DNA of 62,790 bases, filler included, from Globobulimina sp. (Eukaryota): NCBI GenBank assembly GCA_003354225.1. It is 29 parts of 29 records of this genome, joined end to end, with 100 filler letters (N's around TTAATTAATTAA, not from the genome) between each part and the next. Parts side by side here need not be neighbours in the genome. Positions count along the whole stretch, not along the records: positions 6,514 to 8,584 come from PIVH01009253.1; 28 more parts are not named here. One strand, given 5' to 3'. The position numbers and the translations under genes are program-made. Below are positions 1-34,616 of this stretch, one piece after another. The first letter of the stretch is position 1. Each line of letters opens with the position of its first letter. A model generated the notes under the pieces. It ran no database searches, was not told the origin of the DNA, and was given only the letters and a program-made list of their open reading frames with translations.

Positions 1-15
1 ATTTCCGAAAAGCAG

Positions 16-2071
16 ATGAAAATGTATCACGAAATGATGTATTTATTAATATTATGCGATGTAGATATTGGCAAGGAATCATTGGTAGAAGCCGAGGAAA
101 ACACAGCTACAAAATCCAGAATCTGTTCCGCCTTGGAATTGGCGTATAAATTATATATCCCTCACATATTTGTTGCGTTGACATTAAATAAACGTGGAAA
201 TGTTTTTGGTCGTGACGATGACTGTAAATTACATGATATATTGACCTCAGCATCGGACCACGAAAAGATCCAACATATTATCAATAAATTATGGCGTGGA
301 TCTATATTGGATGAGATAATCAAATGCGATGATCACACATTAAGTATTTTAAGTGCTGCGTTATATTTTTATCATTTAATACGAGGCAAACAGTCTTTAA
401 AACGCATTGAAAAAACGTCATCGCCAACATCACATATTGGCGCTGGTGATGCAATGGTAACTTATTATAAATTTTTGAATCACACAAAGAGATTTTCAAA
501 GAAATGGAATGAAAAATATTATGCAAATTTATTTTTATTAAATAGATTTTGGTCCAAACCATACATTGCAAAATTAAAATTAATTGAATTACATATTGAA
601 TATAAAACATGCCAGCAAACAAAAGGATTTCTGCAATTTGTATCTTATTTGCCTCAATTTTGCAATCTTTCTTGTTTGGATTTGATATCGCTTTCAAACT
701 CACACAACGTGGATCAGCACCATTGTTGTAAGTTATTTGCGGCATTAAACAAATTTTGCCAAAAGAATTACACGTTAAAACGCATTAAATTCGAAGGGTT
801 TGAAATCAGTAAAAAATCAAGTAAATTATTGGCTGAATGGCTCAAACAATGGAATGATAGCTTTGACGCAGTACACACGATACAGGCATTATCATTGGTA
901 AATGTCAAGTTTAATAACAGGGGCATTCAGTTACTATGTGGCGCAATGGAATACAATCAACAATTAATATTTCAAGATTTAGTATTGGATGGAAACGTAT
1001 TTGATATCCCCGGCGCTCATTTCATATGTTCAATGTTACAAAATAAACGGATATCAACTCATTTACAATTGTTACAGATGAAAAATCTAAAATATTTATT
1101 TTTCGATGACGGTGACTCTTTGTTAAAAGTGTATTTGTTGAGAAGTTGCATGAAACACAATTTTCGAGTTATATTAAGTGACCGTGACAGTGACACTGAG
1201 GATGTTATTCTGGCTGCAAACAATTATATAAATAAAAACACCATCGATTATATTAAATCATGCACAGACAACGAATCGACTGCAGTGGCAATTGCGCATA
1301 AACATGATTATGATTATGATACCAAGGAAGAAGACGAAGTACAAATTGAATCGTGTTTGCGATCATTAGCTCCCAACGAAAAAGTGTGGACATATCAAAT
1401 GGAAAAAATCGAGGATACCTGCAAGGCGACAACATGTGCCACTGAATTGCAATCAAATCCTCATTTTGAAGCCGATAAACATAGTAACACATCAAATTGG
1501 AAAATACCCAAACCCAATTTCTCTAAAAATGCAAAGAAATCCCGCAAGATTTGTTTTTTTAAGCCGCGAGAATCCAATGCTAAAAAATTTAAACACAAAC
1601 GAGAACACAGCCGTAGCCATAGCCATATGCATGAAATCCATTCCTTTGAAGAAACAGACGATTGTATTGTGTACAATTCACAGTATAAATATTTATTTAT
1701 ACAGTTAAAAACAATGAAAGATGTGAATATTGAAATAGATTTAAGTATGTTCGATGCATTAAATGTCAAATTTTGTTACATCAAATTGTATAATAATGAT
1801 TCTAGTTTGACACTGTCAAACTCGTCGCTATCAAAGGAAATTTATTTCAGAAATATGATCTGTATTCAAGGAGCCAAAGAGCTTCGTTTTACCACCCATA
1901 GCCGAACTCACCATCAAAAACGGACTCATGTGAGGTGTCCATACTCCATTCATACTTGCGCCGGATCGAAATCGCCCATGCCCGACGGAAAAAGGATCTA
2001 TTCCTCTATACAAATCGAGATTGGGGAAAAACATCTCCCAGACCTCGAAGTTGCCGATGTCAGGCTCCGGG
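16..2071 (+). CDS. LRR (RNI-like) repeat-containing protein, 3' truncated
   Basis: Long ORF with degenerate LRR units (NLSCLDLISL, TLKRIKFEGFEI, IQALSLVNVKFNNRGIQLLC, FQDLVLDGNVFDIPGAHFIC). It runs into the spacer. Confidence 0.5.
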
Positions 2072-2171: not shown

Positions 2172-4242
2172 TTTTCCTTTTTTTCTTCATTGTCATTTTC
2201 AACCATATCACTTGATTGTTTTACTATGGGCTGCAATTCAAGGTTGGTCTGACCTGTTGATGTTGGTTTGATGTCTTTCGTTCTATATACCTTTGGTTTA
2301 TTACTGCAATCCCAAATGGCATCGCCTCTACATTGATGATGAAATATCACTTTCACAATCCCTATTATCAGCCATTTCAGATGCGGTTGTTATTTCGTGC
2401 TGAATGAAATGAGTTGTTTTCATATTTTTCAAATCATAAGTCATAAATGAATCGTTTCCAGAACCATGGCTGATAATATGTACTATAACACCATTATATG
2501 CTGTATTTTCCAATTTGGCGGTATGGATATCAATAAAATCTATAATATCTCGTCTGGTGGCGTCCAATGTCTTTCCTTTACATGCAAATACATCGTAATT
2601 ATATACTCCTTCCCAAAGATCTAACAACTTATTAATTATACTCTGTACTCCTGGTAAAAATAATGATCTATTCTTAAATTGCGAGATTCCAATCAATAAA
2701 ACTAATGTTTTATTCACAACAAATGCTTTGTTATACCGCTTTCTATAAAGATAGAACACAATGCAAATTAAGCAACATGGAATAAGTAATAACGTAATTA
2801 GCCACAATAAGTTCCAATTAATAATGTCTTGCGAATAATCGCGTGGACGTATTGTTATTTCGATATCATCAGCAACTAACAGTTTCAAGTGTAAAGTTTT
2901 CAAAAGCTCGGGCATTGGTAACTGTTGGTTTTATTCTGATTACATCCGACACATTTACGACAAGAGTATCATCAATACGCAATTCAGCATTATAAAATGC
3001 AACGGTAAGAGGTGCAGAATAATCACTGATTATGTTTTGAAATTGGTCCGTTATAAAAAATGATAATTCCAAATATGCGTCAACAACATATTGCCGATTG
3101 TATTCAAAATAAACATAATATGGAGTTGTATGGTTAATCCATGAGGACTCATTAAATGATAATAACATTAAATGACTTTGGTCGACGTCATTGTGAGATT
3201 TATTTGTACATCGCACATGCAATTGAGAGATATATCGTTGATCATTGCTGTAATAATTTTGCAAAACGTCATAACAAACAAGGTAACAATTTCCAGCATC
3301 GTACATGAATGAGATAAATGATTCGTTGATAATGGCGTCTAAAAACACAAACACTCCTTCATTCATTTGCATTATGGCATATTTATAATTTTGAGAATCA
3401 AATATTGCAGAAAATGTAATATTATCCAGCATAATATTGGCGCCATTTGACTCAATAATTGCAGAATGAGGATTAATTGCAGCCCAATAATCCATTGGAC
3501 TCGATGCTGAAAATAGTTCATAATTCGAAACGTAACTTGTTTTTCCAAGCGATGCATAAAAACACTTGTTTTGATCCTCAAATATATTTTCAAGATTGTC
3601 TCTAAAACATGAGGTTATCGACGCTGAGTTCCCTGCTTCAACCGTAATAATAGTGGACGCGGCAAACGTGTTCCCACTAAAACAAATTGTGCGAAAGCTG
3701 TCAATATAAAATAATGCCTTGTGGTTTTTAAAAATGCTGTGTTCGATGATGTTGTTGTATACAATATACATTTTAACGCCGCCAATAATATGTATAACAC
3801 CCTTCGCTTGATATGGTACTGATGATATATTATATACACTGCCTGTATCGTTTCTGTCAATGGTGTTGTTGATGAATATAACATTAGATTGGAAAAAAGA
3901 ACTCTCATATGTTGAAGGCCAGGCTGGTGCAAATGTGATGATGCCGGCATTATCATCTGTTCTGAAATAACAATTTTGAACCAATATATCTGACCCAGTT
4001 AGAAGCAGTGGTGGAGTACGGGCCACCCAATGATCCACAGGTAACAGTAATAGCATTTCAAACATATACGATGAAAGAGTATGACACTGGCCAACATTAA
4101 TAAATTCACAATTAATTAGCTGTAACATTGAAATTTTTTCCATTGTTTGTACTGCTAAATATCCATATTGCAGGCTTGAATTAATCACGTAATCATTGCC
4201 AGAAAAAAACCTGGCTATACCACCGATAGCAACATCCAAGTT
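2172..4242 (-). pseudogene. Single-pass receptor with cytoplasmic caspase-like (peptidase C14) domain, two frameshifts, both ends truncated
   Basis: ORFs 2869-4239 (Asn/Ile-rich ectodomain), 2328-2915 (TM helix LLWLITLLLIPCCLICIVFYLY, then LVLLIGISQF...VIVHIISHGSG) and 2120-2356 (VKVIFHHQCRG) join across frameshifts near 2880 and 2357. The His-Gly and QCRG motifs match the caspase catalytic dyad. Confidence 0.75.
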
Positions 4243-4344: not shown

Positions 4345-5922
4345 ATCAAATCAACATTTTATTTACCACGTACACTCATAATAGGAGCCATTGTAACTAT
4401 CCGTAACGAATTAAAATCGTACAAACCGTCGATACAATTATGTGACAATGATTTATTAGCACTTTTGCCAGTATTTAGTGAATTGGATCATATCTATGAA
4501 TTGAATCTAAGTCACTGCAATATCTCATGCAACGGAGTATATTTATTATGCGAATTACTACGCAAAAATAAAAAGATTGAACTGATTGATTTACGAAATA
4601 ATAAAATATCTGATTTGGGAGCACAAGCTTTATCCGAAATGTTGCAAATCGAAGCAACAAAACTTAAAACATTAATATTACATTTTAATGAAATCACAGA
4701 ATGCGGCGCTTTTCATATTGCTCAGGGTCTAAAAATAAACACAGTCTTACAAGAATTAGACATTTCGCACAACAAATTAGGTTCTTATGGTGCTAAAATA
4801 ATAAGAGCTGCATTATTGGAAAGGTCCATGCATATGTTCAATACAAATAATTTAATGATTGAACATAAACAAACATTTAATCTCATAGATGATGATAAAA
4901 ATGCAGAAAATAGCAGTAACGCTGACAGCAACGCTTCATCTGACACTGACACTGATGATGAAAAATCCTGCTCAAAGATAGTATCATTGCAGTCACCGCA
5001 GTTGTTACGAAGGGAGAGATCTGCAAAGATTCGCAGTCCATACCGTCCGTCACCACAATTGTTGCAAAAATGGATATCGCCGCAACAGCTACAATATATG
5101 CAGTCGCAGTTAGGTATTTTTATCAAATTTGAGGGTAATTTTGTGAAAGAGGAAATATTTAATTCCATAACGCATGCATTGGGATTATTGTTGTCCATAA
5201 TTGCCAGTATTGTACTAATGAAAGTATCTCGTGATAATTATTCACTTTTGTGTCAAATTGCAAGTGGCATCTTTTGTTTTACATTGTTTTTTATGTATTT
5301 ATCATCGACGTTGTTTCATTCTTTTTTGCGTTGTACCTGCGCCCGAAATGTGTTTCGTGTCTTGGACTTTTCATCGATATTTTTATTGATTGCAGGGACA
5401 TATACACCGATATTATTGATTGGTTTTAATCATTCTCCATTTCATTCGTTAATATTATTTATTTGCATATGGTCTGTGGCTATTTTAGGTGTCGCGTATT
5501 CATCGTATGCTGATCCACATGATTCGAAATGGAAAAAATTAACATTTTTATATTTAGCAATGTCGTATGCTGCATTGATTTGTGCCAAACCATTTATTGA
5601 AACCTTTGATTATATGGCTTGGGTCTGGATCGCCGTCGGCGGCTTTTGGTATACTGCGGGTGTTTGGTTTATTGCCAATGACGAAACTGTGCCAATATTC
5701 CATACAATTTGGCATATTTGTGTCATACTTGGAAGTGCTTCACATTTTTTTTGTATTTTATGGTATATTGTACCTATGGACAATGTGCAAAGACCGATAC
5801 ATCAGCTCACATTACAACATATATTGGATAATTTATTTTTTGCTTTACCAATTTCAAAATTATTTACGTATTTTGATAGTGATATGATGACAATGGATCA
5901 TAATGTTGTGAATGAACTATAA
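4345..5922 (+). CDS. LRR repeats fused to hemolysin-III/PAQR 7-TM domain, 5' partial
   Basis: RNI-like LRRs (ELNLSHCNIS, LIDLRNNKISDLGA, LQELDISHNKLGSYGA) are followed in the same frame by PAQR motifs EEIFNSITH, SSTLFH, RVLDFSSIFLLIAGTYTP and FHTIWH. Confidence 0.85.
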   Translation: MKSTFYLPRTLIIGAIVTIRNELKSYKPSIQLCDNDLLALLPVFSELDHIYELNLSHCNISCNGVYLLCELLRKNKKIELIDLRNNKISDLGAQALSEMLQIEATKLKTLILHFNEITECGAFHIAQGLKINTVLQELDISHNKLGSYGAKIIRAALLERSMHMFNTNNLMIEHKQTFNLIDDDKNAENSSNADSNASSDTDTDDEKSCSKIVSLQSPQLLRRERSAKIRSPYRPSPQLLQKWISPQQLQYMQSQLGIFIKFEGNFVKEEIFNSITHALGLLLSIIASIVLMKVSRDNYSLLCQIASGIFCFTLFFMYLSSTLFHSFLRCTCARNVFRVLDFSSIFLLIAGTYTPILLIGFNHSPFHSLILFICIWSVAILGVAYSSYADPHDSKWKKLTFLYLAMSYAALICAKPFIETFDYMAWVWIAVGGFWYTAGVWFIANDETVPIFHTIWHICVILGSASHFFCILWYIVPMDNVQRPIHQLTLQHILDNLFFALPISKLFTYFDSDMMTMDHNVVNEL

Positions 5923-6513: not shown

Positions 6514-7602
6514 AAATTTTGATATTGCAATGATTAAAACAAGTGCTTTATCTACTTTATAAAGTTGTCTTTTTTGACATTTATTTAAACAAAACAGATA
6601 CAGACAATACCCCACAAAACAAATTATAACACTAGAAAGTACACTAATTATCCATAGAGCAATAAATTCATTATCCACTGTTGGTGACGGTGTAGGACTT
6701 ATGGTTGGTGATAATGTCGGGCTAATACTGGGTGACGAGCTTGGGCTCATACTTGGAGATAAACTCATTGCAGTTGGTGATGAGCTTGGTGATAATGTTG
6801 GTGCTGAGCTTGGGGTTGGAGACAAAGTTACAATTGTTGGGGTTTGTGTAGGTAATGACGTTGTCATTGTCGGTTCAATAGTGGGCCACGTGGGGTCTGT
6901 TATTGGTTCAATTGTTGGGTCTGACGTGGGTGCAGTTGTTAGATATGCACAGACTGTAAAATGTAGGTCAATTGCATCGATAACGCCAGCTGCTCTCATT
7001 TCGAATCCTGATAAATATGAATTGTTTATATATACGTCGCCAGTATCGTTTAATGACATGTTTGCTATGTTTGATATGTTCGCTACGCATTGATATGATA
7101 AACCGTTTTTGGTATGGAAATATAAAGCATGTACAAACTGTCCGTATATAACACGAAACCCTGAGATATGATCTCCGTTCTGCAAAACAAATGGCGTGCA
7201 TAAATCAACAGGATCTGAGCCGAAAACTACATGTTTATATTGCATGTCCGATGCGAATTGTAAATTTGCCACAGCATCATAATCTATATTCAATGTAGGC
7301 AGTTCTTTGCTAATCCCCCAGGAAATTGAATGAATTCTTCCCTGTTGTTTTGTAGTTGTGATCAAAGTGCCTCCTTCTCCACCAAAGAAACCAGTATGCA
7401 GCCACCAACTTGGAGGCCAATTGTAATTATACACACATTCTCCTGTAAATGTATACGTACATTTAGAAAACTACACAACTGTCCGTGAGAAATAGACGTA
7501 CTTACTTGATAATTGAGGTGAAAGCCATAGATCTGTTGCGATTGCGATTGCGATAATGACTCCAAATACAAGTAATGTGCTTATTTTTGCGAACGAAGAC
7601 AT
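6514..7602 (-). CDS. Jacalin-like lectin + Pro/Thr/Ser stalk + TM receptor, cytoplasmic domain starting like a caspase p20; 3' truncated
   Basis: Signal peptide from ATG 7602; a 63-nt GTAAGT..ACAG intron (7505-7443) removes an in-frame stop. Jacalin-type GFFGGEGG and FEMRAAGVIDAIDLHF motifs, SPT/PT repeats, a TM helix, then KVDKALVLIIAISKF. Confidence 0.7.
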
Positions 7603-7867
7603 GAGAAGGCAAATTATGTAAGAAAAAGCGCACGAAAACAGTCGTTGATTATTAAAAAGTAAACAAAATTGCATGATAATAATTAATACATAATATGATG
7701 CTATAAAATCATTGATAACTACACAATAACTAATTGTCAAAAAAAATTGTTAAAAAGAGGGCAAAAAGGTAATATAAAACACGCATACATTGTCATGTTA
7801 AATTATATCAATTAATATCAACAAAATTACATATGATTAATTATAATATTTCCTCAAAAACGCGTTT

Positions 7868-8584
7868 TTAATCAACCTCAATTTCAGCATCAACCACTGG
7901 AGCCACAACATCCCCCTTTTCATTTTTTTTTGCATCATCATTCTCAATTTCTTGTTTTTTATCCGCAATTTCTTGTTTTTTATTTTTATCCGCATTTTCT
8001 TGCACGTTTTGCTCCTCATTTTCCAATGGTGGCATTTCATCCTCTTCTTCCTCCTCTTCCTCCTCTTCCTCATTCGTTTCCGCTTGTTTTAGATCGGTTT
8101 TATCATCATTCTGTTCCAAATCATCAATGGGTTTATCATCCGAGTCATCAGAGGACGACTCATTGCCGCCCGTATTCATTCCACCCATATTTAAATTGCC
8201 ATATTCATCATCATCATCTACGACACCTTTTTTTCCTTTTTTGGCGTCTTCTTCGTCCATAAACCGGTTCCAATCTACTTTACAATGATGCTGTTTATCC
8301 GTTTTTTATTCATTCATTCATTTGATTGAGTGCAAGGATAAGAAGCAAGAAATTATTTGTATTAACTTTGAATTTTTTTTTATCGGCTTTTGGTAATAAA
8401 TGAGGCCAATACGCATTGCTTGTGTCTTTCTCTATAACTAACTCTAAAACACGAGTAGCGCGATATTTTATTGTTTTTGGATTCACAGGGAATCGGAAAT
8501 TAAAATTTATTTCGTAAGCGCCATATGAAAAGGAAAAAGAATCTCTGGTGATGTCTAATTTAGTTTCGCTGACGTCGACATCCG
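7868..8584 (-). CDS. p23/Sba1-like Hsp90 co-chaperone (CS domain + acidic tail), 5' partial
   Basis: YWPHLL..K and CKVDWNRFMDEED motifs are joined by intron 8366-8291 (GTTAAT..CAG). Long acidic C-terminus. Confidence 0.8.
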
Positions 8585-32548: not shown

Positions 32549-34616
32549 ACTTATACCAATTGGTATTCATCAATCACTACCGACCATAAATATTGTGTAG
32601 AAATGACAGCGCATAAGAACTATGAATGGGAAACAAAGAACTGTTCTGATAGCAACACTTTTATCTGTAATTCATGCCACTATGATATAGCCGATAACTC
32701 CCAATCATACCATGTAAATCCAAATATATTAAGCTGGGATAATTCTCAATTATATTGTACCAATCATTGCAATTCTGACCTGGCATCAATACATAACGAA
32801 CGCGACCTGAATTATGCAAAATATCTATCAATCAATGGCCATAAATTAAATATAAATGAATATTCAAACAATGTATCAATTGGATTATTCAAAAATGAGT
32901 TATCAATTGAATGGGAATGGATAGATGGCTCAGATTTCAATTATGGGCATGATTATAGGCATCCGGATGGCAGACCATATCCATGGTCGGCACTATTGAC
33001 CAATACTTCTGATGCACAGTGTGTGAGAATGAAATCTTCTCAGAACTATGAATTCCATGATGGGAATTGTAGTGGCTCTGCGCAATCAAGATTTATGTGC
33101 CATTCATGCGATGCAACGCTGAATAAATATGTGGTTGTTAATATTGACAAATTACATGCCGATGGCAATGCCTTTTGTCAACGCGAATTGGGCACAGCTT
33201 TAGCATCCTTACACAGCACATCTGATCACAACGAAGCTAAATATTTATGCCAACTCAGTAGTAATAACAATGGAGATTGTCATATTGGATTAGCATTTTA
33301 TAATTCGTATCAATACGATGATGGGACAGGTTTTGATTTTGGTACTGAGCTCGCAGCATATCCATGGAGCTCGTATACGAGTGGTGATAATGTGGTGTTA
33401 TCTCAACTTGACGATTATTTATGGAAAGCTGTAGATTCGACGGCGAAACATAATTTTATTTGCAATTTGCCTTCGCAATTGTGTACAGTCAGTGATTGGA
33501 ATGTTTTTGGTGATTGGGATGCATTCGAGACAACAAATAATTGCAATCTGCAGCATAGTAACAATGGTGCCGCTGTGATGACGGATAAACAATTTATTAA
33601 TCATAATAATGAATTATTGATAGAATTAATTTATGCCATAACAGATATCAATTCCGCTTTTAGCTCAATTGCAGCCGGAATTATGTTATTTAATATGCAA
33701 TCAGTATGTGATTATTATTATATATCAATTACACCTCAAAATAATGGCAAACGTAGTAAATTATCGCTGGGAAAGGTTAATAATGGTATTTATGATATAT
33801 TATACATGAATGATACAATGCTGTTTAAAATTGGAGTCGATTATGTGTTAAGAGTACAGGTTATTGATGGAGATATATTTAAGATTTCTATCAATGATAA
33901 TTTAATGATTGAATTCAGTGATTTTAGCTCCACTGTTAATGGCGGTGTATTATCAGGTTATATTGGTATAATGAATAGAAATTTGGCTACAATTTTCAGA
34001 TCGTTGCATGTTTCTGGTGGTGAATGGATATACGATACAGTCCCATTAAGTACATGCCTTAAATCTGAATATATTACATTGTCGCCAACAAATGAGCCTA
34101 CAATCAATCCATCTTTACAACCTACATTTGTTCCCACAAATATTCCAACAAATATGCCAACAAATGTTCCCACATTTGAACCAACAAAATATCCAACCAC
34201 TGAACCATCATATTATCCAACAGCAATACCAAGCTTACAACCAACCAGTCGACCAACAGTCGATCCAATCGAATTAAAAAGTGGCAGTGTTGACGATGTG
34301 AGTTCAACCACAATCATTCCTGATATAAATAACAAAGATTTGGATGATATTGATGATGGCGCTTTATTTTTGAATATTATTTATGTAGCGGTTGCTGTAA
34401 TTTTTTGTTGTTTGTTGAGTATTTGTGTTGTTATGATATATGTTAATAAAAAGAAACAGAATGTGGCAAGATATAATGTGCAATATCCACAAAAAGACTT
34501 GGAATTAGAACAAACAAAACCTGATAGGATTAGTGTTAAAGTAACAAGAAAAAGAGAGTTAACTACATGCACAGATGATAGTATTGAAGGATTGTATGAC
34601 GCGGATGATTTGTTGG
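32549..34616 (+). CDS. Multi C-type lectin domain receptor with PT-repeat stalk and TM helix, partial
   Basis: Repeated CTLD motifs (LASIHN, IGL..WEWIDGS, FIC), a beta-rich domain, PTxxPT repeats and TM IIYVAVAVIFCCLLSICVVMIYV. Confidence 0.85.

Follow-up and report, generated by a model that had tools for sequence, protein, structure and literature searches.

A foraminiferal gene for a jacalin-type lectin receptor that probably carries a cytoplasmic caspase-type domain

The window analysed here, a stretch of 62,790 nucleotides from Globobulimina sp. (GenBank assembly GCA_003354225.1), consists of 29 contigs of 2,067–2,071 bases each, separated by spacers of N and with a G+C content of about 28–43%. 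The minus strand of contig 4 (PIVH01009253.1; positions 6514–8584, 2,071 bases) carries a spliced lectin-receptor gene that is cut by the contig end, the visible portion being the front three-fifths of the gene. Its features, in the order of translation, are as follows.

7506..7602, minus strand: exon 1, 97 bases, with the ATG at 7602–7600 and, on translation, a signal-peptide-like hydrophobic N-terminus
7443..7505, minus strand: intron, 63 bases, GT..AG, skipped by run contigs
6514..7442, minus strand: exon 2, with a reading frame still open where the contig stops; the residues read from 7440 are referred to as P0002
6946..7404, minus strand: jacalin-type beta-prism I domain, P0002 residues 13–165, assigned from a Pfam match below the cut-off, a structural model, Foldseek and a profile
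6667..6945, minus strand: P/S/T-rich stalk, residues 166–258, in which P, S and T account for 21 residues each among 93 (68%)
6586..6666, minus strand: single membrane helix, residues 259–285, assigned from hydropathy and helical in the model (pLDDT 93–95)
6562..6585, minus strand: basic juxtamembrane linker NKCQKRQL, residues 286–293, placed on the cytoplasmic side by the positive-inside rule
6514..6561, minus strand: predicted start of a caspase-type Peptidase_C14 domain, comprising 16 residues (first beta-strand) up to the contig end

Exon 1 translates to MSSFAKISTLLVFGVIIAIAIATDLWLSPQLS, in which the hydrophobic stretch after the ATG reads MSSFAKISTLLVFGVIIAIAIATD (recognized by eye from the sequence, with no dedicated signal-peptide predictor), and its product begins with MSSF/MSSL, as do the related public proteins P0004, P0005, P0042, and P0043. 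P0002 comprises the 309 residues of exon 2, the visible frame being open for all 309 codons. The intron is defined by one contig each of the sequencing runs X5 and X6, which omits exactly 63 bases here, with the ends CT..AC on the plus strand. In run X5, the contig in question has a length of 1,732 bases, lies on 6514–7441 and 7505–7608 without the intron, and extends 709 bases past position 6514. This corresponds to approximately 236 codons and is near the 259–270 residues that follow the equivalent segment in P0004 and P0005. As the library type of the X5 and X6 runs is not on record, a DNA copy lacking the intron is, in principle, another possible source of the spliced form. Run contigs also differ from the window by 9 bases at two places, left out at 7058 (X5, X8) and put in at 7070 (X6), in a loop of the lectin domain where P0004 likewise has a three-residue gap; with a length of 9 bases, both differences keep the reading frame, as expected for coding sequence. 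The neighboring gene on the same contig (7868–8584, minus strand) has an intron at about 8290–8366 that run contigs skip, and encodes a long acidic tail ending in AEIEVD. Its summed contig depth in X5, X6, and X8 is far above that of the lectin gene. Pfam gave no match in this gene, the product of which may resemble a p23-type co-chaperone.

The outer part of P0002 was compared with known lectins at the level of profile and fold. Pfam Jacalin (PF01419) matches P0002 over positions 2–135 of its 136 with 17.7 bits and an E-value of 0.005, which misses the gathering cut-off of 22 bits; the relative P0005 passes the cut-off with 23.9 bits, as do 8 of 60 scanned relatives of the lectin domain. An AlphaFold model of P0002, calculated from 35 sequences, has a pLDDT >90 over residues ~13–165. 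Foldseek with this model returned ZG16 (7o88_A) as the best match (E 8e-10, TM 0.81 by target length), followed by griffithsin, banana lectin, and artocarpin, and a jacalin-family profile searched against solved structures matched 2jz4 (3.5e-6) and ZG16B (8.5e-5) as well as PPL3 and artocarpin. Model, Foldseek, and profile thus all place P0002 in the beta-prism I fold. The domain contains four N-x-S/T sequons. P0002 carries the motifs FFGGEGG and AAGVIDAI. We take the sugar-binding loops of jacalins to be defined as a GG loop and a G-x-x-x-D loop; presumably the GG-x-GG near the start and the Asp of GVIDAI sit at the binding-loop positions of mannose-binding jacalins. The first Gly of the G-x-x-x-D loop is Ala in P0002, where P0004 and P0005 have GGVID. 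A second match of the jacalin profile in the window, in contig 16, was rejected as it came about via the PT stalk and the helix only, with no lectin fold.

The stalk is modelled as disordered (pLDDT <50 over residues 192–252) and leads into the sole strongly hydrophobic segment of P0002, where the best 21-residue Kyte–Doolittle mean within residues 259–285 is 2.43. We infer a type I membrane protein whose tail is cytoplasmic, given the presence of a signal peptide, sequons, a mucin-like stalk, and basic residues just past the helix. An initial annotation of this DNA, made from the sequence alone, had placed a signal peptide, a jacalin-like domain, a mucin-like stalk, and a transmembrane helix between 6514 and 7602. 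These assignments hold: the N-terminus after the ATG is hydrophobic (as read from the sequence), the Pfam match spans nearly the full jacalin profile and the fold matches that of ZG16, and a stalk with 68% P/S/T is followed by a hydrophobic helix. The coordinates are correct as well, with the amendment that the 63-base intron at 7443–7505 was missing from them.

Past the linker NKCQKRQL, the sequence continues with YKVDKALVLIIAISKF, where the contig stops. The contig ends before the catalytic residues, as had been noted initially, and includes just the first 16 residues of the predicted C14 domain. To classify this tail, a family profile was built from nine public C14 domains, none of them from the window, and searched against 2,926 six-frame fragments of the window. 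The tail matches profile positions 2–17 with 10.8 bits and E 0.026–0.043, ranking third behind two pieces of the gene at 2172–4242 (7e-47 and 4e-5); the next match has an E-value of 1.8. Taken alone, the tail is thus borderline as evidence for a C14 domain. A similarity between the tail and the gene at 2172–4242 had been proposed in the initial annotation and is recovered by BLASTP (E 0.001, 12/36 identical, in one single comparison). AlphaFold draws the 16 residues as a continuation of the membrane helix, which we treat as an artefact of the truncation of the protein.

Full-length relatives provide the context for the tail. The best protein matches come from the foraminifera Bolivina argentea and Nonionella stella at 49–58% identity, and of 619 matches obtained in a search of 1.84 billion representatives, P0004, P0042, P0005, P0043, and P0044 are the best five. 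P0004 (613 residues; E 1.1e-76, 49% identity, 98% of the query covered) and P0005 (543 residues; 58% identity over 54% of the query) are both named Bolivina argentea in EukProt and both carry PF00656. Four of these five proteins (P0004, P0005, P0043, P0044) have a C14 domain, and P0042 ends within the stalk. The Pfam E-values for C14 are 1.3e-16 in P0004, 1.8e-11 in P0005, and 1.5e-14 in P0044, and these three share the motif VDKALVLIIG, followed by HILSHG and IFYDACRG. P0043, from Bolivina argentea, has the same jacalin–stalk–helix layout, but Tyr replaces His (HILSY) and Cys (YDAYN) at the catalytic positions; it is, judging by its sequence, a pseudo-caspase paralogue.

It could be argued that the likeness of the tail is due to chance, or to a sorting motif shared by membrane-proximal segments, and that the missing part of the gene encodes something other than a caspase-type domain. 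The segment is, after all, 16 residues long and scores just 10.8 bits, and other tails are found on the jacalin-like module as well. Against this, the tail follows the helix in precisely the register of profile positions 2–17, and all four of the closest relatives that reach past the helix have a C14 domain. Furthermore, the BLASTP alignment of P0002 with P0004 (E 4e-86) is colinear through lectin domain, stalk, helix, and tail, and within it 15 of 16 tail residues are identical to P0004 residues 339–354 in the same register; this segment of P0004 includes residue 345, at which its Pfam Peptidase_C14 match begins. As the colinear alignment includes the tail, its resemblance is more than chance, and we consider a non-caspase continuation highly improbable. 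The profile search with the juxtamembrane segment, which the initial annotation had called for, is therefore borderline when the segment is taken by itself and strong once the whole-protein alignment to P0004 is included. The SHG and (Q/A)CRG motifs that it expected downstream are found in the full-length relatives P0004, P0005, and P0044, while the corresponding stretch of the gene itself lies off the contig. P0002 has the layout of a receptor-caspase, which we define as an ectodomain of at least 150 residues and a helix at most 50 residues upstream of the ..VDKALVLIIGIS.F start of a C14 domain: 258 residues of lectin domain and stalk are followed by the helix at 259–285 and the tail at 294–309. 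On these grounds the contig-4 gene very probably belongs to the receptor-caspase family.

The kind of C14 domain was assessed on the family profile and on the full-length relatives. Searched against the sequences of the PDB, the profile matched CED-3 (1.8e-5, 2.6e-4), an insect caspase (3.4e-3), and caspase-2 (~0.02), and all matches up to E 0.034 are caspases. Metacaspases and paracaspases do not appear among the PDB profile matches up to E 10, an absence that is no evidence of exclusion. A single-sequence PDB search with P0004 returned nothing relevant, the caspase matches having come with the nine-sequence profile. The AlphaFold model of P0005 (pLDDT 81.2) contains six main strands in its C14 domain, for which Foldseek returned caspases only (CED-3 and caspases-9, -11, -7, -3, and -8; E from 4.9e-11). 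VIA-align Z scores of the same model range from 25.6 to 21.4 for caspases (top 25.6, 24.8, 24.6), with 21.8 for the paracaspase MALT1 and 18.5, 17.4, 16.2, and 13.1 for metacaspases. In the model of this relative, the C14 fold is nearer to caspases than to metacaspases.

The substrate pocket differs from that of a strict caspase. Pocket columns were taken from an alignment to CED-3 and counted over 81 family members: Leu lies under the first P1-binding Arg of caspases in 80/81, the Gln of QACRG is replaced by His in 73 members or by Asp in 4 (the jacalin clade), and an Arg lies under the arginine of the caspase SWR motif in 73/81, with a gap in 4. The family thus lacks the P1-Asp pocket of strict caspases, formed by two Arg and the Gln of QACRG, and an aspartate specificity is doubtful on the basis of these residues. 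With Leu in place of the first Arg and His or Asp in place of Gln, we refer to the domain as caspase-type rather than caspase and do not assume aspartate specificity; the jacalin clade may have an altered, non-aspartate cleavage specificity.

A search with the nine-domain profile retrieved 78 proteins of 574–2,000 residues at E ≤ 1e-3, all from EukProt, and in total at least 81 public proteins match the family profile; the family counts given here refer to these 81. All 20 family proteins that were looked up by species name belong to Bolivina argentea or Nonionella stella, and two further ones are unnamed. At least 150 residues precede the C14 domain in all 81 members, and a 19-mer resembling a membrane helix lies within 50 residues upstream of it in 77. 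The catalytic His is present in 76 members, the Cys in 76, and both in 75, three of the other six being truncated. Pfam, run on 42 members, recognized only C14 (24/42) and PT repeats; for a few members, C-type lectin, jacalin, and Kelch-type repeats are given by precomputed labels. The outer domains are varied, with few of them recognized by Pfam.

The lectin module was followed in the other direction by scanning 60 of 150 listed relatives, chosen because their match covered the lectin part. Four of the 60 carry a C14 domain, which in three of them (P0069, P0073, and P0083) is of a second, different type. SAM tails are present in 3/60 and an added C-type lectin domain in 5/60. The occurrence of the lectin module with SAM, with a second C14 type, and with a C-type lectin domain indicates that sensor and effector modules have been combined in several ways. 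A profile built from the second C14 type (P0069, P0073, P0083) had no match in the window (best E 0.46). The four jacalin-clade members share the signature DAC/DAY and, on that basis, probably descend from one fusion. The initial annotation had anticipated a large family in which varied sensors are shuffled onto one caspase-like effector and had suggested enumerating the domain architectures. The size of the family bears this out, and the enumeration revealed a helix upstream of C14 in nearly all members together with varied ectodomains. The family is modular and its outer parts vary, but the effector is not a single one, given the SAM tails and the second C14 type.

Other contigs of the window carry genes of related or unrelated make-up. 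The gene at 2172–4242 (minus strand, contig 2) is a second member of the family and is interrupted: the ORF of its ectodomain stops at about 2869, the helix and the first half of the C14 domain lie in another frame at 2930–2331 (157.7 bits, E 7e-47), and a piece containing KVIFHHQCRGD lies in a third frame at 2389–2174 (E 4e-5). It is either a pseudogene or the product of an assembly error. At 32549–34615 (plus strand), one frame spans the contig and contains two C-type lectin stretches (Pfam E 3.2e-17), a PT stalk, and a helix; its cytoplasmic tail starts unlike a C14 domain, making it another receptor on the same chassis. An ORF at 4465–5919 (plus strand) joins leucine-rich repeats (LRR_6, E 1.8e-11) to a seven-helix domain of the Haemolysin-III/PAQR type (HlyIII, E 1.6e-31), which is an unusual fusion. 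The 703-residue ORF at 1–2071 (plus strand) is open at the contig start and has the look of leucine-rich repeats in its middle part, with no Pfam match at E ≤ 0.001.

Considering the above, we propose with a probability of roughly 80% that the locus is a real, spliced foraminiferal gene for a type I lectin receptor with a cytoplasmic caspase-type C14 domain, belonging to a large family that couples many different outer domains via one helix to this caspase-type domain. Read from the sequences, the order is signal peptide, jacalin-type lectin domain, P/S/T stalk, helix, and C14 domain, and there are full-length relatives with this order that retain intact His and Cys. For the contig-4 copy itself, an intact catalytic pair is a likely prediction. 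The alternative is that this copy is catalytically dead or decaying, a pseudo-caspase scaffold or a pseudogene, with a tail that would do no more than bind partners or would be idle. Such copies have precedents: P0043, one of the five nearest relatives, carries Tyr in place of both His and Cys, and the member at 2172–4242, whose Cys-bearing part lies in another frame, is broken by frame shifts, which means that dead copies exist. In addition, the tail of P0002 has Ala where 78/81 family members have Gly. The same Ala is found, however, in the remaining 3/81 members, both catalytic residues are kept in 75/81, the frame is open over 309 codons with the intron removed in the run contigs, and the 9-base differences at 7058 and 7070 preserve the frame. 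We therefore regard a dead copy as improbable.

A further reading accepts the lectin-caspase receptor as such and assigns it to feeding or adhesion, where limited proteolysis triggered by glycans would remodel the pseudopodial cytoskeleton or membrane, outside of cell death or immunity. It shares the architecture of our preferred explanation, and it would be in keeping with the altered S1 pocket, which speaks against the death pathway of animals having simply been copied, and with the non-death effector SAM that the same lectin–stalk–helix chassis carries in 3/60 relatives. Nothing in the present evidence, though, separates one cellular role from another, and we consider this particular role rather unlikely.

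For the receptor with a caspase-type effector, as we propose it, a mechanism based on ligand-induced clustering is putative and offered tentatively. The ligand of the lectin domain would be a glycan, presented by prey, by a microbe, by another cell, or on the surface of the cell itself, and a multivalent ligand would cluster the receptors. Proximity-induced activation is the known mode of initiator caspases, and the cytoplasmic domains could be activated in the same way, as in initiator caspases and MALT1. A long disordered linker, which in P0005 has a pLDDT <50 at residues 403–453, separates the large subunit part from the small one; self-cleavage may then occur in this linker, and local cytoplasmic substrates would be cut. 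Extended to the whole family, this gives an equally tentative picture of a surface system in which jacalin-type, C-type lectin, Kelch-type, and Pfam-unknown ectodomains are fused via a helix to a caspase-type protease, with exchangeable effectors and signalling by direct proteolysis.

Animal caspases (caspase-8, caspase-9, Dronc, CED-3; MEROPS C14A) are the best profile and fold matches of the relatives' C14 domains. They have in common with the family the His of SHG, the Cys of ACRG, the order of large part, long linker, and small part, and the Arg under the SWR arginine (73/81). Unlike animal caspases, which are soluble enzymes brought to receptors by adaptor proteins, the family has no CARD, DED, or death domain, and its protease is tethered to a helix and a lectin in one chain. 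It also differs in the Leu for the first P1-binding Arg, the His or Asp for Gln, and its protist host. MALT1, with a Z score on the P0005 model inside the caspase range (21.8), is missing from the PDB profile matches up to E 10; it is activated by dimerization and not aspartate-specific, and it is soluble, with death and Ig domains. Death receptors of the TNFR superfamily have Cys-rich repeats outside and a death domain inside, neither of which was found by Pfam in P0002, P0004, or P0005. The outer domain resembles jacalin-related lectins such as ZG16 (PF01419) in fold (TM 0.81; Z 18.2 for ZG16 on the model of a relative) and by profile match. In contrast to these lectins, it is anchored to the membrane via a stalk, has two nearly invariant Cys, and scores below the Pfam cut-off in P0002.

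Two sets of proteins from the literature come close in part. Cyanobacterial metacaspases or orthocaspases with a membrane helix or with CHASE2/ANF-receptor domains are described by Jiang et al. (2010, PMC2853523). Like the present family, they combine a sensor-type domain, a helix, and a C14 domain in one chain and were catalogued from genomes; they differ in being bacterial, in belonging to a metacaspase-like branch, and in their sensor domains (PMC2853523). Caspase-like proteins of the foraminifer Reticulomyxa filosa group with animal caspases and not with metacaspases, according to Klim et al. (2018, PMC5982838), and are similar to the present family as foraminiferal C14 proteins of the caspase type. 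The words "lectin" and "receptor" occur zero times in that article text, and "transmembrane" is used there only for the mitochondrial potential. One caspase-like protein from Reticulomyxa serves as an outgroup in two later studies (PMC10959488, PMC10565124). A full-text literature search found no description of a membrane-anchored, receptor- or lectin-fused caspase-type protein of a protist, and papers with phrases like "receptor-caspase" concern animal cell death, cancer, and neurobiology, as far as their titles and the openings of their abstracts tell.

A caspase-type domain coupled directly to a lectin ectodomain would alter the view of caspases as soluble, adaptor-recruited enzymes and would make for a much shorter route from an outside signal to proteolysis. 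Such a protein would be a one-protein version of the animal combination of receptor, adaptor, and initiator caspase and, if ligand-induced clustering fires the protease, a novel form of signalling across the membrane that acts via direct proteolysis. The family spans at least 81 versions in two other foraminifera in addition to the present genome, and it would bear on the debated origin of caspases outside animals (Klim et al. 2018, PMC5982838). The contig-4 gene adds a putative glycan-binding member and supports an exchange of sensors and effectors in both directions. If the proposed reading is true, possible roles of these receptors would include innate immunity and the recognition of self and non-self or of prey in a giant single cell.
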